Part shown: piece by piece, positions 3,154-11,231 of the stretch
How positions within the stretch are numbered: the first letter of the stretch is position 1
Layout of the letters: every line of letters begins with the position of its first letter
Origin: Armatimonadota bacterium
GTDB taxonomy: Bacteria; Armatimonadota; Zipacnadia; Zipacnadales; UBA5352
Reading direction: 5' to 3'
Length of the DNA: 11,231 nucleotides
NCBI GenBank assembly: GCA_034722055.1
Contig: JAYENL010000328.1
Coordinates: 1-11,231 of the forward strand
The notes under the pieces: model-generated
The model's input: only the letters and a program-made list of their open reading frames with translations
Databases searched by the model: none
What the model was told of the DNA's origin: nothing
Position numbers and translations under genes: made by a program

Positions 3154-3518
3154 TGTTGTTCTTCCCCTTCGCCTGTCCGCAACCCGCGCATCGACGACGC
3201 AGCACGCGACCGTGCCCGATGCTCCTGCAGGTGGTGCCAATAGCCAGCTATATCGCACATCGCGCCCTTATCTGCCGCCACGTCAATCTGTATCTCTACG
3301 GGCAGCCCGTGGGTCGCAGCCAGGTCGAAGACGTGCTTACCCGGGATGACCACCAGCGCGTCTTTGCCCCTCTCACGCAGCGCCGCCTCTCTCGCCCGCG
3401 GGATCGCGTCCTGCTGCTGATCCCACAGCCGCTGGTACTCATCCGGGATCCCTCCCTCAGCCACGAACTCCAGCATGAGTTCGCGGGCCTGACGAAAGAG
3501 CTCGTCAGCGTAGCTCAC
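3150..3518 (-). CDS. Hypothetical protein, 122 aa
   Basis: GTG start overlaps the helicase stop (GTGA, 3515-3518) and its stop overlaps the next ATG, implying translational coupling at both ends. Protein-like composition. Confidence 0.72.
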   Translation of the reverse strand: MSYADELFRQARELMLEFVAEGGIPDEYQRLWDQQQDAIPRAREAALRERGKDALVVIPGKHVFDLAATHGLPVEIQIDVAADKGAMCDIAGYWHHLQEHRARSRAASSMRGLRTGEGEEQQ

Positions 3519-6500
3519 GTGGCCGCCTCCGCCAGCACACCGCGGGCGGCGCCTGTTGCCCGGTGCAGCCCCCGCGTGAGTCGCTCACCCCGCGCCTCCC
3601 GGATCTCCCGCGCCAGCCCGGTATCATCGATCTGCTCAGTGGGTTCCATGAACGTGCTCATCAGCCCCTGCTTCTCCTCCAGCAGCTTCCGCCGGCGCCG
3701 CTCGTAGGGCACGTTCGTCCCCAGCGTGTACACGGACACGTTCCCCCACCGTTGCGTGAGGCGGTTTTGCCTCCCCTCTCGCTGCCTCATCTCTTTGGCC
3801 GTCCATGGCTGGTCGTAATGCACCAGCCACCGGGCCCGTTCGAGGTTGAGGCCGATGGCGGCGGCCGCCGACCCCACCAGCACGTCGTACTGTGCCTGTT
3901 GCCGGCGCGTGCGGGCCTCCTCCTCCAGCGTCTCCTGGCCGCGACCGGCGTCGGCGTTGAAGCGCATCCGCTGCAGCTCCGTCTCCTCCCCGTCCAGCTT
4001 GCCGGTGATTTTGCCCACCCGGAACCCCGCCTTCTCCAGCGCGTCAGCCAGCATGTCCACCGACTGCAGCGACTGGGCGAAGACCAGACCGGGGATCATG
4101 CCCTCGTCGGCATCGTCGCCCCGGTGCTTCTCCGCCAGGGCGATGACCTTCTGTATCCGGGGGTTGTGCTCTGGCGGGGCGTGCTCCAACACGCGGGCCA
4201 CGGCCCGGTCACGGGCGAACCCCAGGGACCGCCCTACATCGTCCAGCTTCTGCGCCCGGGCCTCGCCCTCCAGCCCGGCCAGCGCTTCCTCTGGCATCAA
4301 CCGCGCCAGGGCCTCGCGCTGGGCCTCGCTGCCCTGGGGGACTCGCCGGGCGTCGTTGTAGGCCTCCAGCACCTGCCGGTATCGGTCCCGCTGCCACTCA
4401 GAAAGCCCTACGCCGATGTCCTCGTGCGCCTCCATCACCCCGGTGTCCACGTTGTTCGCGTAGAAGTAGGGCATAACCAGCCGCTGCAGCGCCTGCCGAT
4501 TCGCCTCCGTGTTCAGCCCGTAGCGCCGGCGGAACTCCTCGTACCCGTCCCGCGGGAACTTGTCCGGGCGGATCTTGTACAACAGGTCATAGACCTCGCT
4601 GGGATCGTTCTTGACCGGCGTGGCGCTGGCGCTGATGAAGTAGCCCGCCCGCTCGGTGGTGGCGTCGATCACCCGGGCCAGCCGGCTGTCCGGCTTGCCC
4701 TTACGATTGAGTGTGTCGTGGCCCTCGTCGACCATGTTGAAGTCGAACTGCCACCCCTGCGCGTCAATGGCCTCCTGCACCGCGCTGCTGGTCTCGTCCG
4801 GCGAGGCCTCGCGCAGCCACTGGGCCGCCTGCTCTGTGTTGCCGTCGAAGCGCTGCTGGGCCACCGCCCAGGTCACGTCGTCGCGCCAGGCCTGATGCGA
4901 CACCGCCACCATGTCCCGTTCGGGGTCCGCGTAGGCCGCCCGCCGCTCCTCAGCGTCCGCAGAGGGGTCGGCGAAGTGGCGGAACCTCCCAGGTTCCACG
5001 TAGCGGTTCATCTCGCCGCCGAACTGCGCCTGGATCTTGGGCGGGACCAGGAATAGCCCCCGCTTCACCTGCCCCTTGCTGTGCAGGTCCGTGAAGCCGC
5101 CGATGGCCACGAGCGATTTGCCGCTGTTGTGGTGGATCAAGCCATGTGCTACGTAGTTGTGATAGACCGGCACCTCAAAGTCGAAGTACTCTTCCTCGGC
5201 ACCTGCTTCGATAGTTGACACCCGCACCCAGTAAGGTGTACTGCAGACGACCGGCTCAGATGCCGTGCCGACAGGATAGGCCACGTGTCCATATCGATGT
5301 CGATCAGCTGCGCGATCTCGCGACACGCGGCACATTGCGGCAGCAGGAGATATGTTCGCGCCTTGGGATCTGTCCGCAGACATTTCGCAAGTTGGTCGAT
5401 CAGTACGAGATCGACTGGCGGCCGTTGCAGCAGCGACGAGATCGCCGGGGTCGAGATCGGCCAGCCGACGCCAGCCCCCAGGCGTCAGAAACAGATGAGA
5501 GCGCGCCACCGTGATCTGGTTGCCGTCATCGCTGACCACGCGGAATAGGCGTTCGCTCCCCTTGATGAACGGCACTGCCGCTTCAGCCACGTGGAAATGG
5601 CCATCGTGATCAAGCGATAGGACACGTGGCGCTGTCCCATCTTGGTAGTGCTCTCGGACCGTCTTCTGCTGCTGTGTCATGGGATCAATCAGTACCGTGT
5701 CTCCCGCGACGCAACCCGTGCTGTGGTGCAGCCCGATGCGCTTGTTCTGCTCGAGCAGCTTGATGGCTCGCTGCTGGTGCACGTAGCGACCATCCATGTT
5801 CAGGTCGTGGATGATCTCCACCGGCCGCTCCGGGTCGAAGTTGGGCGCCACATTCGACCACACCCGCCGCGCCTGGTTCTCTGCGGTGCGACCGATGCTG
5901 GTGCGACTGGCGGCGGGCTCTCGTTCGGTGAAGAGCGTGAGCTGCATCTTCTTGGCCTTCTCCAGGATCCGCTGGGCGAGGTCCTTCACGGCGCCGGGGG
6001 CGTAGCGGCCAGCCGCGTCCCGCTTGCGCAGGCTTTCGTACTGCTGGCGGAGTACCTTGTCGTCGGCGTCGAGGACCCGCTCCAAGGCGTCGCGCGGCAT
6101 CAGCCCCACGACATGGCCCAGGGCGTTGGGAAGGTCCGCCGGCGCCGAGCGCAGCTCCCGCCCCGTCTCGCGGGCATAATGCTCGCCGAAGCTGGTCAGC
6201 AGGTCCCCTTGGACGAGGGCCTGCAGGCTGCGGTATGCCTTGTGCGTGCCCTTCTGCGCCCGCACGTAGCGGGTCCATGCGTTCTCCGCCCGCTCTGCCT
6301 CCTCCGCCTCCACCCGCTCCTGAAAGGCCTCCGTCTCCCCGCGCGTGACTGGCTCCACCTCGCCGAAGATGTTGCTCTGGCCAGCGATGATCTCCTCGGC
6401 CGCCTCCGCCCGCGCCGCGCGCTCCTCTCGTGTCTCCGCCGCCGCCGGCGGCTCCTCATCCGTCAGGTGCGTCCAGAAGTACTGACGCAGCAGGGCCTTG

Positions 6501-9064
6501 TCCTGGGGCGTCATCTGACTCAGCGGCGTCCAGGCCACCTTGCCCTCTGGCACCTCCTGCAGCGCCCGGTGCATGGGGTCCCACGCGCTGGCTGTGTTGA
6601 CCTGCTGGGCGTCCAGCGCCACCCGCTCCTCATCCGCCTCCTCCAGGAACGGCTTCACCAGCTCCTCCCCCACCGCCGTCCAGTTGTCGTCGGCCTCCTC
6701 CGCCGGCCAGATCCTGGCGACGATCTCCGCGAACTGCTGCTGCTGAAACTCGTCCAGGTTATTGGCCTGCCACTCCGCCGACAGCACCCGGTTGCGCAGG
6801 GACGCCGCGCTGCCGACTCCGTCGTTCGCCAGCATCCGACCAGCGTACTCGCGCAGCGCCTCCTCCAGCTCCGGGCCGTACTTGGCCTCCAGCAGCTCCG
6901 CCACATCCACGTCCCACCCCTCGACCTGCTCGATGTCGGCTTCCTCGTAGTAGGCGTCGGAGGGCCGGCGCATCAGCCCCTCCGCCAGCCAGCCCTTCTC
7001 GTCGTCGTCGCCAGCCTTGATCGACCGTGCCCGGTCATACAGCTCCACCTGTTCCGGGTCCGGTTCCTCCATGAGCTTGTACCACGCGCTCCGGCCCAGG
7101 CGGAGGTACTGATTGGGGCCGTCCGTCTGCAGCTCGTAATCGTCCGCGTCCAAGCCTAACGCGGCGGCGATCTGCAGGGCGCGGGCGTTGCCGACGGGGC
7201 CCAGCGCCACGTCGATGGTGTCCTCCTGTCCCTCCATCAGCGCCGCGTTCAGCGCCCCCATCATCTGCAGCTGGCCCAGGGCCAGGCCCAGGGTCTCGCG
7301 CGCCTCATGCAGGTGCTCGAGCTTCTCCTCGTTGGCCGCCGACGCTGCCTCCAGCCCTTCCGGTCCCAGCTCGCCGATGGTGCCCAGCCCGTCGAAGGCG
7401 TGCGCCGCCGCCTCCAGGTGTTCCCGTGCCCGCCTGACGGCCTCCTGTGCTTGCTCCGTCTGCTGCTGCATATGATGCTCGCGCAGCGTCTCGCGTATGG
7501 CGGCGGCGTCGTCGCCGGTATGGCGCATGATCTGCCGTGCCATCAGCGCGGCGGCCGTCTCCGGCCCCAGCAGGTCCAGCACCTCCCGCGGGATGGTCAG
7601 CGGCTGGCGAAACACCGCCTGCGCCACCTCCTCCAGCTGCACGTGCCGGCCCTCCAGCAGGTGCTGCTGCAGCGTCTTCGGGCCGCCCTCGATCTCCTCC
7701 GTCTCGGTGAGCAGGCGCACGGCGGCCGTGGTCTGAGCCCGCTCCTGCAGGCTCTGTTCCACCTTGTGTAGTGCCTCCTCGTCCGATAGCGGTTCGATCT
7801 CCACCAACGCCGAACCCGCTGCCACCTTAGTCACGTCGGTGGGTGCGGCCCCCTTAACCTCGCGCTCCATGGCCTGCAGCTGCCGCATCCGCTGTTTGAA
7901 CTTCTCCCGCGCGAGCAACACCTGCGGCGCCTTCTCCGGCGGGACCTCTATCGGGGCCTCCGGGTCGTGCAGCCCCTGCTCCCGGTAGGGCCTGTCCTCC
8001 TCTCGTGCCAGGGCCGCCATCGCCTGTAGGCTGTCTATGTAGTTGCGGGCGCGACCAGCGTCCTCGATGTAACCCTCCTGCTCGGCCACCAGCAGGGCCT
8101 CGTTGGTGATGATCTTCCCGCGCCTGCGGGCCTGCTCAGGAGACAGACCGTTCTCGCGCGCCAGTGTCTCCACCTCCGCCATGTACCCCAGGCCGGTGTC
8201 CTCCACCTCGTCGGCAGTGAGGTCCTCCGGTCGGCTGCTTCCCAATGCCTCGATCATGTCCCGTTCGTGCCGTTCGATGACCGCGTCCTGCACCTGCTTC
8301 TCCACCTTATCGGCGGCCCGCAGCAGCCTGCGCCGGCGCTCGCGCTCCAGCCGGTCCGCTGTCTTCCCTGGCAGCTGCTCCTTCACGCGTTCGTCGAGCT
8401 GAGTAGGCTCCCAGCCGAGCAGTTCCCCCAGCTCCGCCAGGTGCTCGGCCTCCGCCTTCTCCCGCCCGCTTTGCAGTTCAGAGAGGGTCTCCAGCCGCTG
8501 CCGTTCGCGTTCCGCGATCTCCTCCTCGGTCAGTCCCGCCTGTCTGGCCTCCTCTCGCTCGCGGGCGCGACGCTGCTCGCGCTTCGCCTTCCGCTCCTCC
8601 CGCTTTCGGCGGGCCTCCGTTCGGTACTGGCCCTTGGTCTTCACGCCGGTGATACGCCGGTAGTTGAGCGCGCCGCCAGCGCCGCCGACGATGGTGCCAC
8701 TTCCGCTCTCGCCCTTGGGGTCATCCATCCGCAGCAGGACGGGATAACCCTCCTCCTCCTCGCCGTGCGGATGCACGGTGATCCAGCGGTAGCGGGGGTC
8801 CTTGCGCCAGTCCACCGTCTCGGCAGCGGCCTTGGAGACCAGCATCGTACGCGGGGGGCGCTGGCCGTGCCGGCTGGCCTGCACGTGCTCGACATGGCCG
8901 CACAGCGGGCAGACCTCCACCTCATAGGTGTCGCCGTCATCGGCCAGCACGGGCAGCGCGTACATGGTCAGGTGATAGCACTGATCCGGCCGCAGCATCG
9001 GCCACGGCAGCTCCCGCTGCTTGCCGCCCTCCGGCCTGCGCTTGGAGAAGGTCAACGTCGCCAT
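3515..9064 (-). CDS. Large multidomain protein (1849 aa) with C-terminal SNF2/SF2 DExH helicase-ATPase containing an intein; DarB/polyvalent-like putative virion cargo
   Basis: Helicase motifs in order: Q-motif HQQRAI, Walker A HSTG[intein]SGKS, Ia FLVPP, II VDEGH, III SATP, IV LVFAQS, V GSAAAAIGLNL, VI QREGRQNR. The first ~1090 aa are charged and helical, with a WITVHPHG...GGAGGALN motif. RBS AGGAGG lies 7 nt before the ATG. Confidence 0.88.
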   Translation of the reverse strand: MATLTFSKRRPEGGKQRELPWPMLRPDQCYHLTMYALPVLADDGDTYEVEVCPLCGHVEHVQASRHGQRPPRTMLVSKAAAETVDWRKDPRYRWITVHPHGEEEEGYPVLLRMDDPKGESGSGTIVGGAGGALNYRRITGVKTKGQYRTEARRKREERKAKREQRRAREREEARQAGLTEEEIAERERQRLETLSELQSGREKAEAEHLAELGELLGWEPTQLDERVKEQLPGKTADRLERERRRRLLRAADKVEKQVQDAVIERHERDMIEALGSSRPEDLTADEVEDTGLGYMAEVETLARENGLSPEQARRRGKIITNEALLVAEQEGYIEDAGRARNYIDSLQAMAALAREEDRPYREQGLHDPEAPIEVPPEKAPQVLLAREKFKQRMRQLQAMEREVKGAAPTDVTKVAAGSALVEIEPLSDEEALHKVEQSLQERAQTTAAVRLLTETEEIEGGPKTLQQHLLEGRHVQLEEVAQAVFRQPLTIPREVLDLLGPETAAALMARQIMRHTGDDAAAIRETLREHHMQQQTEQAQEAVRRAREHLEAAAHAFDGLGTIGELGPEGLEAASAANEEKLEHLHEARETLGLALGQLQMMGALNAALMEGQEDTIDVALGPVGNARALQIAAALGLDADDYELQTDGPNQYLRLGRSAWYKLMEEPDPEQVELYDRARSIKAGDDDEKGWLAEGLMRRPSDAYYEEADIEQVEGWDVDVAELLEAKYGPELEEALREYAGRMLANDGVGSAASLRNRVLSAEWQANNLDEFQQQQFAEIVARIWPAEEADDNWTAVGEELVKPFLEEADEERVALDAQQVNTASAWDPMHRALQEVPEGKVAWTPLSQMTPQDKALLRQYFWTHLTDEEPPAAAETREERAARAEAAEEIIAGQSNIFGEVEPVTRGETEAFQERVEAEEAERAENAWTRYVRAQKGTHKAYRSLQALVQGDLLTSFGEHYARETGRELRSAPADLPNALGHVVGLMPRDALERVLDADDKVLRQQYESLRKRDAAGRYAPGAVKDLAQRILEKAKKMQLTLFTEREPAASRTSIGRTAENQARRVWSNVAPNFDPERPVEIIHDLNMDGRYVHQQRAIKLLEQNKRIGLHHSTGCVAGDTVLIDPMTQQQKTVREHYQDGTAPRVLSLDHDGHFHVAEAAVPFIKGSERLFRVVSDDGNQITVARSHLFLTPGGWRRLADLDPGDLVAAATAASRSRTDRPTCEMSADRSQGANISPAAAMCRVSRDRAADRHRYGHVAYPVGTASEPVVCSTPYWVRVSTIEAGAEEEYFDFEVPVYHNYVAHGLIHHNSGKSLVAIGGFTDLHSKGQVKRGLFLVPPKIQAQFGGEMNRYVEPGRFRHFADPSADAEERRAAYADPERDMVAVSHQAWRDDVTWAVAQQRFDGNTEQAAQWLREASPDETSSAVQEAIDAQGWQFDFNMVDEGHDTLNRKGKPDSRLARVIDATTERAGYFISASATPVKNDPSEVYDLLYKIRPDKFPRDGYEEFRRRYGLNTEANRQALQRLVMPYFYANNVDTGVMEAHEDIGVGLSEWQRDRYRQVLEAYNDARRVPQGSEAQREALARLMPEEALAGLEGEARAQKLDDVGRSLGFARDRAVARVLEHAPPEHNPRIQKVIALAEKHRGDDADEGMIPGLVFAQSLQSVDMLADALEKAGFRVGKITGKLDGEETELQRMRFNADAGRGQETLEEEARTRRQQAQYDVLVGSAAAAIGLNLERARWLVHYDQPWTAKEMRQREGRQNRLTQRWGNVSVYTLGTNVPYERRRRKLLEEKQGLMSTFMEPTEQIDDTGLAREIREARGERLTRGLHRATGAARGVLAEAAT
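5215..5242 (+). promoter_or_regulatory. Putative antisense sigma70-type promoter inside the intein
   Basis: Perfect TTGACA (5215-5220), 16-nt spacer, TGTACT (5237-5242; 4/6 match to TATAAT), 17 nt upstream of ATG 5260. Confidence 0.35.
5260..5514 (+). CDS. Antisense HTH-like mini-protein (84 aa) nested in the intein linker; possibly a homing-endonuclease remnant
   Basis: MPCRQDRPRVHIDVDQLRDLATRGTLRQQEICSRLGICPQTFRKLVDQYEIDWRP shows a tri-helical HTH pattern. The overlapping intein-frame linker is Ser/Arg/Ala-rich and looks non-globular. Confidence 0.55.
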   Translation: MPCRQDRPRVHIDVDQLRDLATRGTLRQQEICSRLGICPQTFRKLVDQYEIDWRPLQQRRDRRGRDRPADASPQASETDESAPP

Positions 9065-9079: not shown

Positions 9080-11231
9080 TTAGTCGCCAAATCGCACCAG
9101 TGCAGCCGGCGGTGCTGGCATCAGCAGCGGCAGGACCGCTTCATACAGCCGGCGCACCCACGGCCTGCCCATCCGATCCACCAGCGGCAGGTCGCGGGCC
9201 AGCTCCCGCGCCCAGGCCGCGGCCAGGTCCAGCGCCCGTTCCTCTGGCCAGTACACACCGCGGCGCACCGTGGCCACCAGCACGCGGGCGGTATCTGCCA
9301 TTGCCAGCGCCTCGCGCTCCCCGAGCTGCCGTGAGCCCTCCTCCACCAGCGCCGCCAGCGGCGCCAGGTCTTCAGCACCCACGGCCTTGAGCAGCTGCAG
9401 CTGGCCCTGGGGGGCGGGCACCTCGGCAGCTCTCGCTCGCGTGGCAGTCGCCTCCCCGGCCGCCCTGTAAGCCTTCCACAGGCGGCGCGTGTCACTGGCC
9501 AGCCGCCGCCGCACGGTCCACAGGCCCCGATGTATCTGGCTCTCTGCGGCAGCGAAGTCCGTGTCGTGGCTGTCCTCCAGCAGGTGGGCAAACTCGTGCA
9601 CCGCCTCGGCGAACAGGAAGTTGTCCAGGGCGTCGGGGCTGATCATGGCCTCGCTGACGTAGCTCACGTTCAGCCCTACGCTCTCGCCCCGCATGCCAGC
9701 GTGTGTCATCGACGCCACCGCTGGCACGTCGCCGGGGATGGCGTCAACCGGCACCGGATCGAGGTGCCTGCCAGCGAGGTGGTTCGCGACCGCCGTCATG
9801 TACCACTGGCCGATCAGCAAGCCGGCCAGCTGGTGGATGCCGATGCTGCGTGACTCGCCTGCAGGGGTCTCCGGACCCAGGAAGCGGCCGGCGGTGGCAT
9901 CCAGCGCCACGGTGTCGTCGGGCGGCCTTGGCCCCCAGGTCTCTCCCAGGCCCAGCTCCGCACGCGCGAAGCTCATATCCTGCAGCGCTTCAGGCGGTTG
10001 GGGGCCGGTCTTCCGCCTGGCCTCCCTGTACTCATGCAACTCGTCGGTGAGCTTACCTAGCTCCTGCACCAGGGCGTGGATCTTGCGGGCGTTGTCGGGG
10101 CTGAGGTCGGACTGACGCAGTAGGACCGGGCAGGCCTCCGCCTCCCCCTCGATGGTGGCGCCGGTCTTCTCCTCCACCGTGAGCTGCTCGAGCTGGTCGC
10201 GCAGCCAGCTCTTCCCCACGTCCAGCTTCAGGCCGGTGCGGTGGGGGTCGAAGGGGTAAGTCTCGCTGCCCGGCCGGGCGGTGGTCTCCACATCCACCAC
10301 GTAAAAGCCCCTGGCGCGGGTGCCCTCGACCACCTGCGCCAGGCCGCCCAGGCGAATGACCAGGTTCTCCCACCCCTGCTCCCACTCGATCTCCGGCTCG
10401 CCTCTCTCGCGCCGCCGTTCGTTCTCCTTGTCGATGTCCACCTTGTAGAGGCGGAGCGTGGTCTCCCCGTCGTTGAAGGTCGTCTCCGCAAGCGGCTTCC
10501 GCCGCGTGGTGGACAGGCCACTGACCTCGCCGTTGTAATTGCCGTGCCAGTCGTCGCTGATCTCCGCGCGCATGGTGATCCCGCGCCCGACGTCGGAGCA
10601 CTGCATGTACCGCAATCCCTTACGCAGGCCTGGGGCCGCCGCCGCGCTGATGTGGTCCCAGCGAATGGCGGTCCCCTGACGCTCCGGCACCACGCGGAAG
10701 CCGGTGACCTTCTCCAGCTCGTGGCTGGCCAGCGCCAGGTCGCGGGTGTGAATCGACCAGGTGCCACCCTTCTGCGGGTCGGACAGGGAGAGGATGACCG
10801 CCTTCGCCACGCCGAAGCCGCCGACGGCCCCGACCTCGTGCGCCTTGCCCGTCTCACCCAGGCACAGGAACTTGTGCTCGAGGGTGTCCGCGTCCATGCC
10901 CACGCCGGTGTCCTCGAACCATGCCTGCTGCCTGCTGGCGTCGTAGCCGAAGGCGATCTCTCCACCGCCCACGGCCTCGCAGGCGTCGCGGCTGTTCTGC
11001 AGCGCCTCCCGCACCGCCATCTGGGCCACTATGCGCGGGGAGCCGTAGGCCTTCTCGGCGAACATGCTCCAGACGACCTCGGGGTTCACGCCCAGGGCGA
11101 TCTTATGGCCCCGCTCGCGGACGGCTACATCGAAGTGTATGCGGGTCCGTGGCCGCACCGGCTTCTGCCTGCTCACCCCGGAGGGCCGGAACTGCCCGCC
11201 CTTCGGATGCCCCTTCGGCCAGCGCGGGTGC
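9080..11231 (-). CDS. GHKL (Hsp90/MORC-like) ATPase plus HExxH zincin-like metallopeptidase protein, 5'-partial (>=716 aa)
   Basis: GHKL boxes REALQNSRDA (N), FEDTGVGM (G1), GETGK...GGFGVA (G2). AVHEFAHLLEDSH at 9566-9598. The frame stays open upstream of the GTG at 11176 (HPRWPKGHPKGGQFRPSG) to the window edge, so the true start probably lies outside the window. Confidence 0.82.
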   Translation of the reverse strand, partial: HPRWPKGHPKGGQFRPSGVSRQKPVRPRTRIHFDVAVRERGHKIALGVNPEVVWSMFAEKAYGSPRIVAQMAVREALQNSRDACEAVGGGEIAFGYDASRQQAWFEDTGVGMDADTLEHKFLCLGETGKAHEVGAVGGFGVAKAVILSLSDPQKGGTWSIHTRDLALASHELEKVTGFRVVPERQGTAIRWDHISAAAAPGLRKGLRYMQCSDVGRGITMRAEISDDWHGNYNGEVSGLSTTRRKPLAETTFNDGETTLRLYKVDIDKENERRRERGEPEIEWEQGWENLVIRLGGLAQVVEGTRARGFYVVDVETTARPGSETYPFDPHRTGLKLDVGKSWLRDQLEQLTVEEKTGATIEGEAEACPVLLRQSDLSPDNARKIHALVQELGKLTDELHEYREARRKTGPQPPEALQDMSFARAELGLGETWGPRPPDDTVALDATAGRFLGPETPAGESRSIGIHQLAGLLIGQWYMTAVANHLAGRHLDPVPVDAIPGDVPAVASMTHAGMRGESVGLNVSYVSEAMISPDALDNFLFAEAVHEFAHLLEDSHDTDFAAAESQIHRGLWTVRRRLASDTRRLWKAYRAAGEATATRARAAEVPAPQGQLQLLKAVGAEDLAPLAALVEEGSRQLGEREALAMADTARVLVATVRRGVYWPEERALDLAAAWARELARDLPLVDRMGRPWVRRLYEAVLPLLMPAPPAALVRFGD

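Follow-up and report, generated by a model that had tools for sequence, protein, structure and literature searches.

The plus-strand ORF that lies opposite the intein linker of a helicase gene in an Armatimonadota genome is likely to encode the C-terminal domain of an antisense HNH homing endonuclease. This helix-turn-helix (HTH) would have been left by an in-frame deletion of about 624 nt and is probably a recent, unselected relic. The allele is probably a stage through which a selfish element passes as it decays, and not a new regulator, and its own importance is limited since it is probably a relic. The window, by which we mean the whole 11,231-nt stretch of DNA that was analysed, is the start of contig C328 in a genome of 330 contigs, and its gene content consists of phage genes.

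The helicase gene and its intein

The features of the window that bear on this finding are as follows.

3515-9064, minus strand: host gene, a 1849-aa SNF2-like helicase (Pfam SNF2-rel_dom and Helicase_C; PHROG 62 DNA helicase, E = 1e-57)
5126-5713, minus strand: intein of 196 aa, helicase residues 1118-1313, in the Walker A motif (HSTG/C ... HN/SGKS)
5438-5713, minus strand: N-terminal splicing region, intein residues 1-92 (51-55% identity to the same-site alleles P0154, P0155 and P0002)
5234-5437, minus strand: intein linker, residues 93-160 (about 68 aa), low in information in the intein frame
5126-5233, minus strand: C-terminal splicing region, residues 161-196, overlapping the antisense promoter position
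5215-5220, plus strand: perfect TTGACA at the -35 position of the intein family, found at the same place in L013, L030 and L090
5239-5244, plus strand: -10 position of the family, here TACTGC (2/6, the last T missing), 18 nt past the -35
5260-5514, plus strand: antisense ORF of 84 aa, from ATG 5260 to TGA 5514, open within the intein linker and running into the N-terminal splicing region
5273-5279: putative in-frame deletion junction, about 208 codons (624 nt) relative to a P0154-type allele, placed by a change-point on codon distances
5278-5427, plus strand: HTH domain, ORF residues 7-56 (Pfam HTH_28, AlphaFold and placement on P0154)
5512-5514, plus strand: TGA stop codon, formed on the strand opposite intein codons I67-T68, close to block B

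The neighbours of the helicase gene encode a head maturation protease and a major head protein (PHROG 1028 and 752), which place it in a phage head region. The intein scores 48.4 bits on Pfam Intein_splicing (cut-off 35.8) and has the residues of a class 1 intein, namely C1, His73 of block B, Asp178 of block F, the terminal H195-N196 and a +1 Ser, with Ala at the position of the usual Thr in block B. Its last 41 residues share 63-73% identity with P0154, P0155 and P0002, and the intein is predicted to splice still. Seven homologous helicases (P0156-P0158 and P0160-P0163), one of them labelled Armatimonadota by its source, have no intein at this site and all read through Walker A. At 196 aa, with a short linker and with all six frames free of an endonuclease, the window allele is a mini-intein.

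The linker differs from the two splicing regions in its coding signal. Codon log-odds per codon in the linker are -0.13 in the plus frame vs -0.76 in the intein frame, while the intein frame is the best of the six in both splicing regions. In the host frame of the linker, GC2 is raised and GC3 lowered, and this inversion of codon positions is confined to the linker. Its low information in the intein frame would follow from its being the opposite strand of an endonuclease remnant. The intein in Walker A with a low-information linker, which the initial annotation of this DNA had read from the sequence, is confirmed by the Pfam score and by the codon log-odds.

The short allele is real DNA that metagenome contigs bridge. 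The window DNA was found in four brine metagenome runs, all of one study, and contigs of three of the four span 5278-5679 with zero differences, two of these three being flagged as possible sources. No second copy was found in the same genome, no match to the intein in 60 related genomes, and no match in GenBank phages searched by tblastn.

An antisense ORF with an HTH domain and no nuclease

The antisense ORF probably comprises about five codons of an old 5' end, the C-terminal HTH and an unstructured tail, which is the opposite strand of the N-terminal splicing region. Its match to Pfam HTH_28 (E = 2.2e-5, 24.9 bits) lies just below the cut-off of 25, and four further Pfam HTH models match it more weakly. 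Single-sequence AlphaFold predicts helices at residues 14-23, 28-35 and 39-48, with pLDDT 72-83 over residues 11-50 and no structure beyond about residue 50. The HTH-like ORF from ATG 5260 that had been proposed from the letters is thus supported by the profile match, and structure prediction of the 5260-5514 peptide, which had been suggested as a check, gave three helices.

Foldseek searches of the PDB gave nothing at E ≤ 0.001, the weak matches being mostly HTH proteins. The best scores in the ESM Atlas (0.89-0.90) fell on small HTH-like clusters and serve as a lead only. Among longer proteins the HTH query returned 12 candidates, none of them significant. A viral scan with the HTH returned a single locus, L007, which is unrelated, carries no intein and was set aside.

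The antisense ORF has no HNH match in Pfam or PHROGs, and the antisense HNH-block score of the window linker is -4.5 vs 83-109 in longer alleles. Judged by its sequence, the nuclease domain is absent from the window ORF, and the allele is a derivative, not an intact antisense-endonuclease intein.

The initial annotation had also pointed to the lack of stop codons on both strands. This is uninformative, being no more than chance. Long antisense ORFs are common in the window, whose GC content is 68%, and when three host genes are read in the register of the window HTH, 40% of their codons belong to stop-free stretches of at least 99 codons.

Related inteins with an antisense HNH endonuclease

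The first relatives were L001-L006, identical copies with an antisense HTH-HTH-HNH ORF, whose flanks suggest that the host site is the Walker A motif of a terminase. The antisense ORF of L001, the only family member tested against Pfam, matches HNH_3 with 38 bits (cut-off 24.8) along with HTH models. Scanning three collections with a 10-row alignment, and leaving out duplicates and loci without one half, yielded 78 distinct inteins with both splicing halves, the window included, as a sample biased by the query alignment, with a viral part that is the best 80 of 142 hits and with related sequences that are not independent.

The intein frame is stop-free in all 78. The best antisense frame lies in the register of the window HTH in 56 of the 57 linkers of at least 440 nt, and an HNH motif passes a loose filter in 54 long-linker inteins, 37 of which also pass a strict 40-residue block. 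In the negative control, each of 28 other inteins, taken from genomes of this phylum, is interrupted in that register by 1-16 stops and lacks an HNH. Translating homologous linkers and looking for antisense HTH(+HNH) ORFs, as had been proposed, supports the reading of the ORF as what is left of an inverted HNH homing endonuclease after loss of its nuclease, with full-length relatives also found at the same site.

Most family members have their HTHs before the HNH, weakly matching the window HTH, and a C-terminal HTH like that of the window was found in none of the 49 HNH tails known from DNA. Seven of the remaining 20 short alleles have a match in the 3' part of a full ORF (L009 among them, weakly); of the rest, L106 has an N-terminal HTH, one gives a marginal match outside these parts and 11 give no match. 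L106 (2501-3160, from an Abditibacteriaceae MAG) is a decayed allele in a homologous helicase, where the antisense N-terminal HTH ends in a stop, and it retains a -35 of 5/6 and TAAACT. At another site, L074 (257-688), a mini-intein, is identical at 430 of 432 nt to L068 (2399-3355), a full antisense-HNH intein, from which it differs by one 525-nt in-frame deletion.

Two further loci were observed in passing. L015 (2501-3097) is a decayed allele that has kept the second half of the HNH and lost the HTHs. P0001, a related helicase, has two inteins (residues 746-1106 and 1255-1613), and both linkers look like antisense shadows.

A probable graded decay among same-site alleles

A search with the host-protein region gave 17 hits, including the longer intein alleles P0154, P0002 and P0159, which are protein records only. 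The intein is 404 aa long in P0154 and 403 aa in P0002; in P0159, which is more distant, it is 363 aa. Their antisense ORFs, decoded from the residues that the proteins allow and not read from DNA, give HNH-block scores of 103 (P0154), 83 (P0002) and 109 (P0159), against maxima of 29, 24 and 32, respectively, in 12 shuffles each. A viral scan with P0154 confirmed nothing and gave no DNA for a full-length same-site allele.

On P0154, the best placement of the window HTH has an offset of exactly 0 relative to the N-terminal splicing region and falls on the 3' side of the HNH (z = 6.4). None of 200 shuffles reached this placement, and for the two halves of the domain taken singly 1/200 and 0/200 did. 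On P0002, the placement of the whole HTH is not significant (32/200 shuffles) and that of its second half is (0/200). At the promoter end, the window linker aligns gap-free to P0154 at offset +208. The C-terminal-HTH architecture, as decoded from P0154 and P0002, appears special to this site. The initial proposal of an inverted-endonuclease remnant is refined accordingly by these alleles: the surviving HTH would be the last domain of the endonuclease, brought up to the old start when an internal deletion removed the N-terminal part and the HNH domain.

The same-site alleles form a graded series, measuring 330, 329, 122 (window), 76 (L009) and 62 (L091) aa from block B to the intein end. L009, an intein of 150 aa, keeps the last HTH helix only and has no start, and its antisense frame stops at the same place as the TGA of the window ORF. 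L091 is a mini-intein without the HTH. A second HTH-only allele was found neither among 17 + 5 protein hits nor in the contig scans, which make a small sample at this site. In this sample, the HTH ORF was not seen to be conserved across diverged genomes as an independent gene, and both L009 and L091 have lost the HTH.

The window and L009 differ at the second position in 2 of 14 codons of the HTH frame, vs differences at 76 of 129 wobble positions of the intein frame in the splicing regions. This conservation indicates that the antisense frame has at some time been under selection, but not that the HTH-only form has been. We had considered the gap-free tail of the two alleles as a shared deletion junction, which would have meant selection on the HTH after nuclease loss. 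We dropped this reading because comparison with P0154 identifies the tail as the place where the full ORF naturally ends.

The same site also offers an intein presence/absence pair in near-identical genes. The C-extein of L091 (197-2697) is identical to intein-less P0157 at 541 of 545 residues. P0157 carries Ala where the intein needs the +1 Ser, and an intein inserted into this Ala allele would be unable to splice.

Candidate promoter and start signals of the antisense ORF

TTGACA, which occurs as two perfect copies in the window, is here the antisense of intein codons V165-S166-T167 and lies 39 nt upstream of ATG 5260. In L013, L030 and L090, it is followed after 18 nt by TATAAT, TACAAT and TAAACT, respectively, and L090, a same-host fragment, also has GGAGG 6 nt before its own ATG. 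In the window, ATG 5260 sits 15 nt past TACTGC, and no sigma-70 promoter passed the scan because the -10 is poor. Neither a Shine-Dalgarno (SD) motif nor a leaderless start was found for the window ORF. TAAGGT at 5232-5237 fits TAnnnT (3/6) and is only 11 nt from TTGACA. L009 retains TTGACA without a start codon, so that a perfect -35 by itself does not indicate that a promoter is used. Of the candidate promoter named in the initial annotation, the hexamer stands, at the -35 position of the family, while the promoter itself was not called and its -10 is degenerate.

A -10 of at least 4/6, in a fixed zone by the conserved Trp codon, is present in 40 of the 54 full alleles and in 2 of the 21 short ones, against 84 of 1410 background windows, where zone and threshold were picked after viewing the sequences and related alleles are not independent. 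An in-frame ATG or GTG follows 5-8 nt past the -10 in 19 of the 54 full alleles; the window has neither such a -10 nor such a start. Since 14 of the 54 full alleles fail the -10 test too, failing it is only moderate evidence of silence. We consider the window antisense ORF likely to be silent. For the family as a whole, these patterns suggest an antisense promoter that overlaps the C-terminal splicing codons (Trp and following), as in L013, L030, L032, L037, L047, L084 and others, and the ATG/GTG spacing suggests leaderless messages. Such a family-wide promoter, often with an ATG about 6 nt past the -10, suggests how hidden nucleases get expressed.

Against an unselected relic, the HTH is well formed, its codon bias is intact and the -35 is perfect. 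A well-formed HTH with intact codon bias means either that the deletion is recent or that the ORF is under selection. It is conceivable, if unlikely, that the HTH-only ORF of this same origin, or an antisense RNA, is still expressed and kept as a regulator, which might bind the homing site or its own promoter in an I-TevI-like autorepression or might dampen the helicase transcript by convergent transcription. The intact three-helix HTH with its good codon bias, the perfect -35, the in-frame ATG and TAAGGT, despite its distance from TTGACA, fit this possibility, and the DNA-binding domain of I-TevI alone represses (PMC2988022). However, the -10 at the family position is only 2/6 and is joined by no SD or leaderless start. 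The promoter matches the empty homing site at best at 11/20, and all of 181 control windows score as high or higher. The HTH has been lost from both short alleles at the same site, L009 and L091, and no second HTH-only allele was found among the protein hits or in the contig scans. Since the stretch shared by the window and L009 is the nuclease's natural 3' end, its conservation is explained by selection on the full-length nuclease. The other reading that had been offered for this ORF, as a small regulator or as an antisense transcript that acts against the late operon, finds no support in the -10, the start signals, the same-site alleles or the empty site.

We regard it as improbable, too, that the element is a domesticated endonuclease DNA-binding domain, an HTH made from the inherited promoter that acts as a repressor or as a homing-site blocker against full-length rivals, or whose transcription has a tuning effect on the helicase gene. 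If true, it would be a nested regulator born of a single deletion.

The putative deletion junction and the proposed course of decay

The position of the junction bears on which HTH survived. The change-point on codon distances falls after intein residues 145-147. BLOSUM scoring alone in the intein frame places the switch of diagonals near 5336-5341, after residues 125-126 and inside the HTH. The latter position would suit a hybrid of N- and C-terminal HTH repeats formed by recombination, or an N-terminal HTH with everything downstream deleted. The prevalence of relatives with HTHs before the HNH, L106 as an N-terminal-HTH remnant at a homologous site, and P0002, on which the N-terminal placement of the HTH ties with the C-terminal one, point the same way. 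But both halves of the domain fit best on the C-terminal diagonal of P0154, this half-domain test favours 5273-5279 as the junction in line with the codon distances, and we hold either origin to be very improbable. It is hardly credible that the ORF arose by chance as an antisense shadow in GC-rich DNA, or that assembly error produced the short allele: the abundance of long antisense ORFs at 68% GC, a Pfam score just under its cut-off and the lack of a Foldseek match at E ≤ 0.001 would allow it, but it is largely refuted by the register shared with 56 of 57 long linkers, the gap-free homology to P0154 and L009, the codon-position inversion confined to the linker and the contigs of three of four runs that bridge the linker unchanged.

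For an HTH that is the C-terminal domain of a deleted HNH endonuclease, the following course may be proposed. The ancestor would have made a nuclease of the form HTH(n)-HNH-HTH, expressed from an antisense promoter of its own that overlapped the codons of the C-terminal splicing region. This nuclease would have cut intein-less helicase alleles. Once the site was occupied, selection on homing would have relaxed. One deletion may then have taken out the nuclease, so that the old start region ran directly into the HTH, the last domain. Since a deletion tolerated by the host must keep the intein frame, the antisense frame is kept too, and no selection is required to explain an in-frame join of start and last domain. 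The resulting intein would still splice and be passively inherited but would no longer home by itself, and further deletions would lead to ordinary mini-inteins.

Relation to known systems

Published anti-sense endonuclease inteins encode LAGLIDADG enzymes (Synechocystis DnaX, Chloroflexus SpoVR-like) or VSR-like enzymes (Gosselin, Arsenault, Gogarten, 10.1101/2025.01.02.630785). The available part of this preprint distinguishes four types, namely in-frame HNH, anti-sense LAGLIDADG, anti-sense VSR-like and frame-3 endonuclease VII, and its section 15 predicts the decay of antisense-endonuclease ORFs toward mini-inteins. The window element resembles the anti-sense LAGLIDADG and VSR inteins described there in having a contiguous intein open in the host frame, an endonuclease ORF opposite the linker and a setting of phage genes. 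It differs from them in that the nuclease family is HNH and in that the window allele has lost the nuclease and keeps the HTH only. Our literature search, which covered few subscription papers, found no paper on antisense HNH inteins; preprint supplements may list such cases.

The C-terminal-HTH remnant and the graded same-site decay series are new here. The series, from a full allele of about 404 aa through the 196-aa HTH-only and the 150-aa alleles to a bare mini-intein, gives a concrete case at one site of the decay that the preprint predicts and does not survey. Some mini-inteins with odd low-complexity linkers would accordingly be antisense-nuclease shadows missed by annotation.

Mini-inteins arise by loss of the homing endonuclease in the homing cycle (PMC8966425). 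Like them, the window intein keeps its splicing motifs and has lost the nuclease by size reduction. Unlike the mini-inteins described there, its relic lies on the opposite strand, is invisible in the intein protein and is an intermediate of a same-site series. The ShiLan domain is an out-of-frame HNH hidden in a phage methylase (PMC11855218), and both systems place an HNH endonuclease in an alternative frame of a host gene that stays open. While ShiLan, as described there, has no splicing domain and is out of frame, the present element is an intein with an antisense ORF from which the HNH has been deleted.

I-HmuI, a phage homing endonuclease, ends in an HTH. In I-HmuI (PMC3384342) and I-TevI (PMC2988022), the catalytic domain is tethered to independent DNA-binding modules, which in I-TevI include an HTH. 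Unlike the window element, both enzymes are intron-encoded, and the likeness is one of modular design.

Other ORFs in the window

Three minus-strand ORFs outside the helicase gene deserve mention. The 122-aa ORF at 3150-3518 matches Pfam tRNA-synt_2c (alanyl-tRNA synthetase) over residues 56-112 (E = 4.7e-8, 32.5 bits, cut-off 30.3); the match is fragment-like and lies within the phage head region. The ORF of about 700 aa at 9080-11230 has no PHROG family and gives weak matches to HATPase_c (E = 0.007) and to metallopeptidase-like models (WLM, YgjP-like; E = 0.16). The head maturation protease at 1025-2704 has a CxxC...CxxC stretch and a long acidic run past its protease part.
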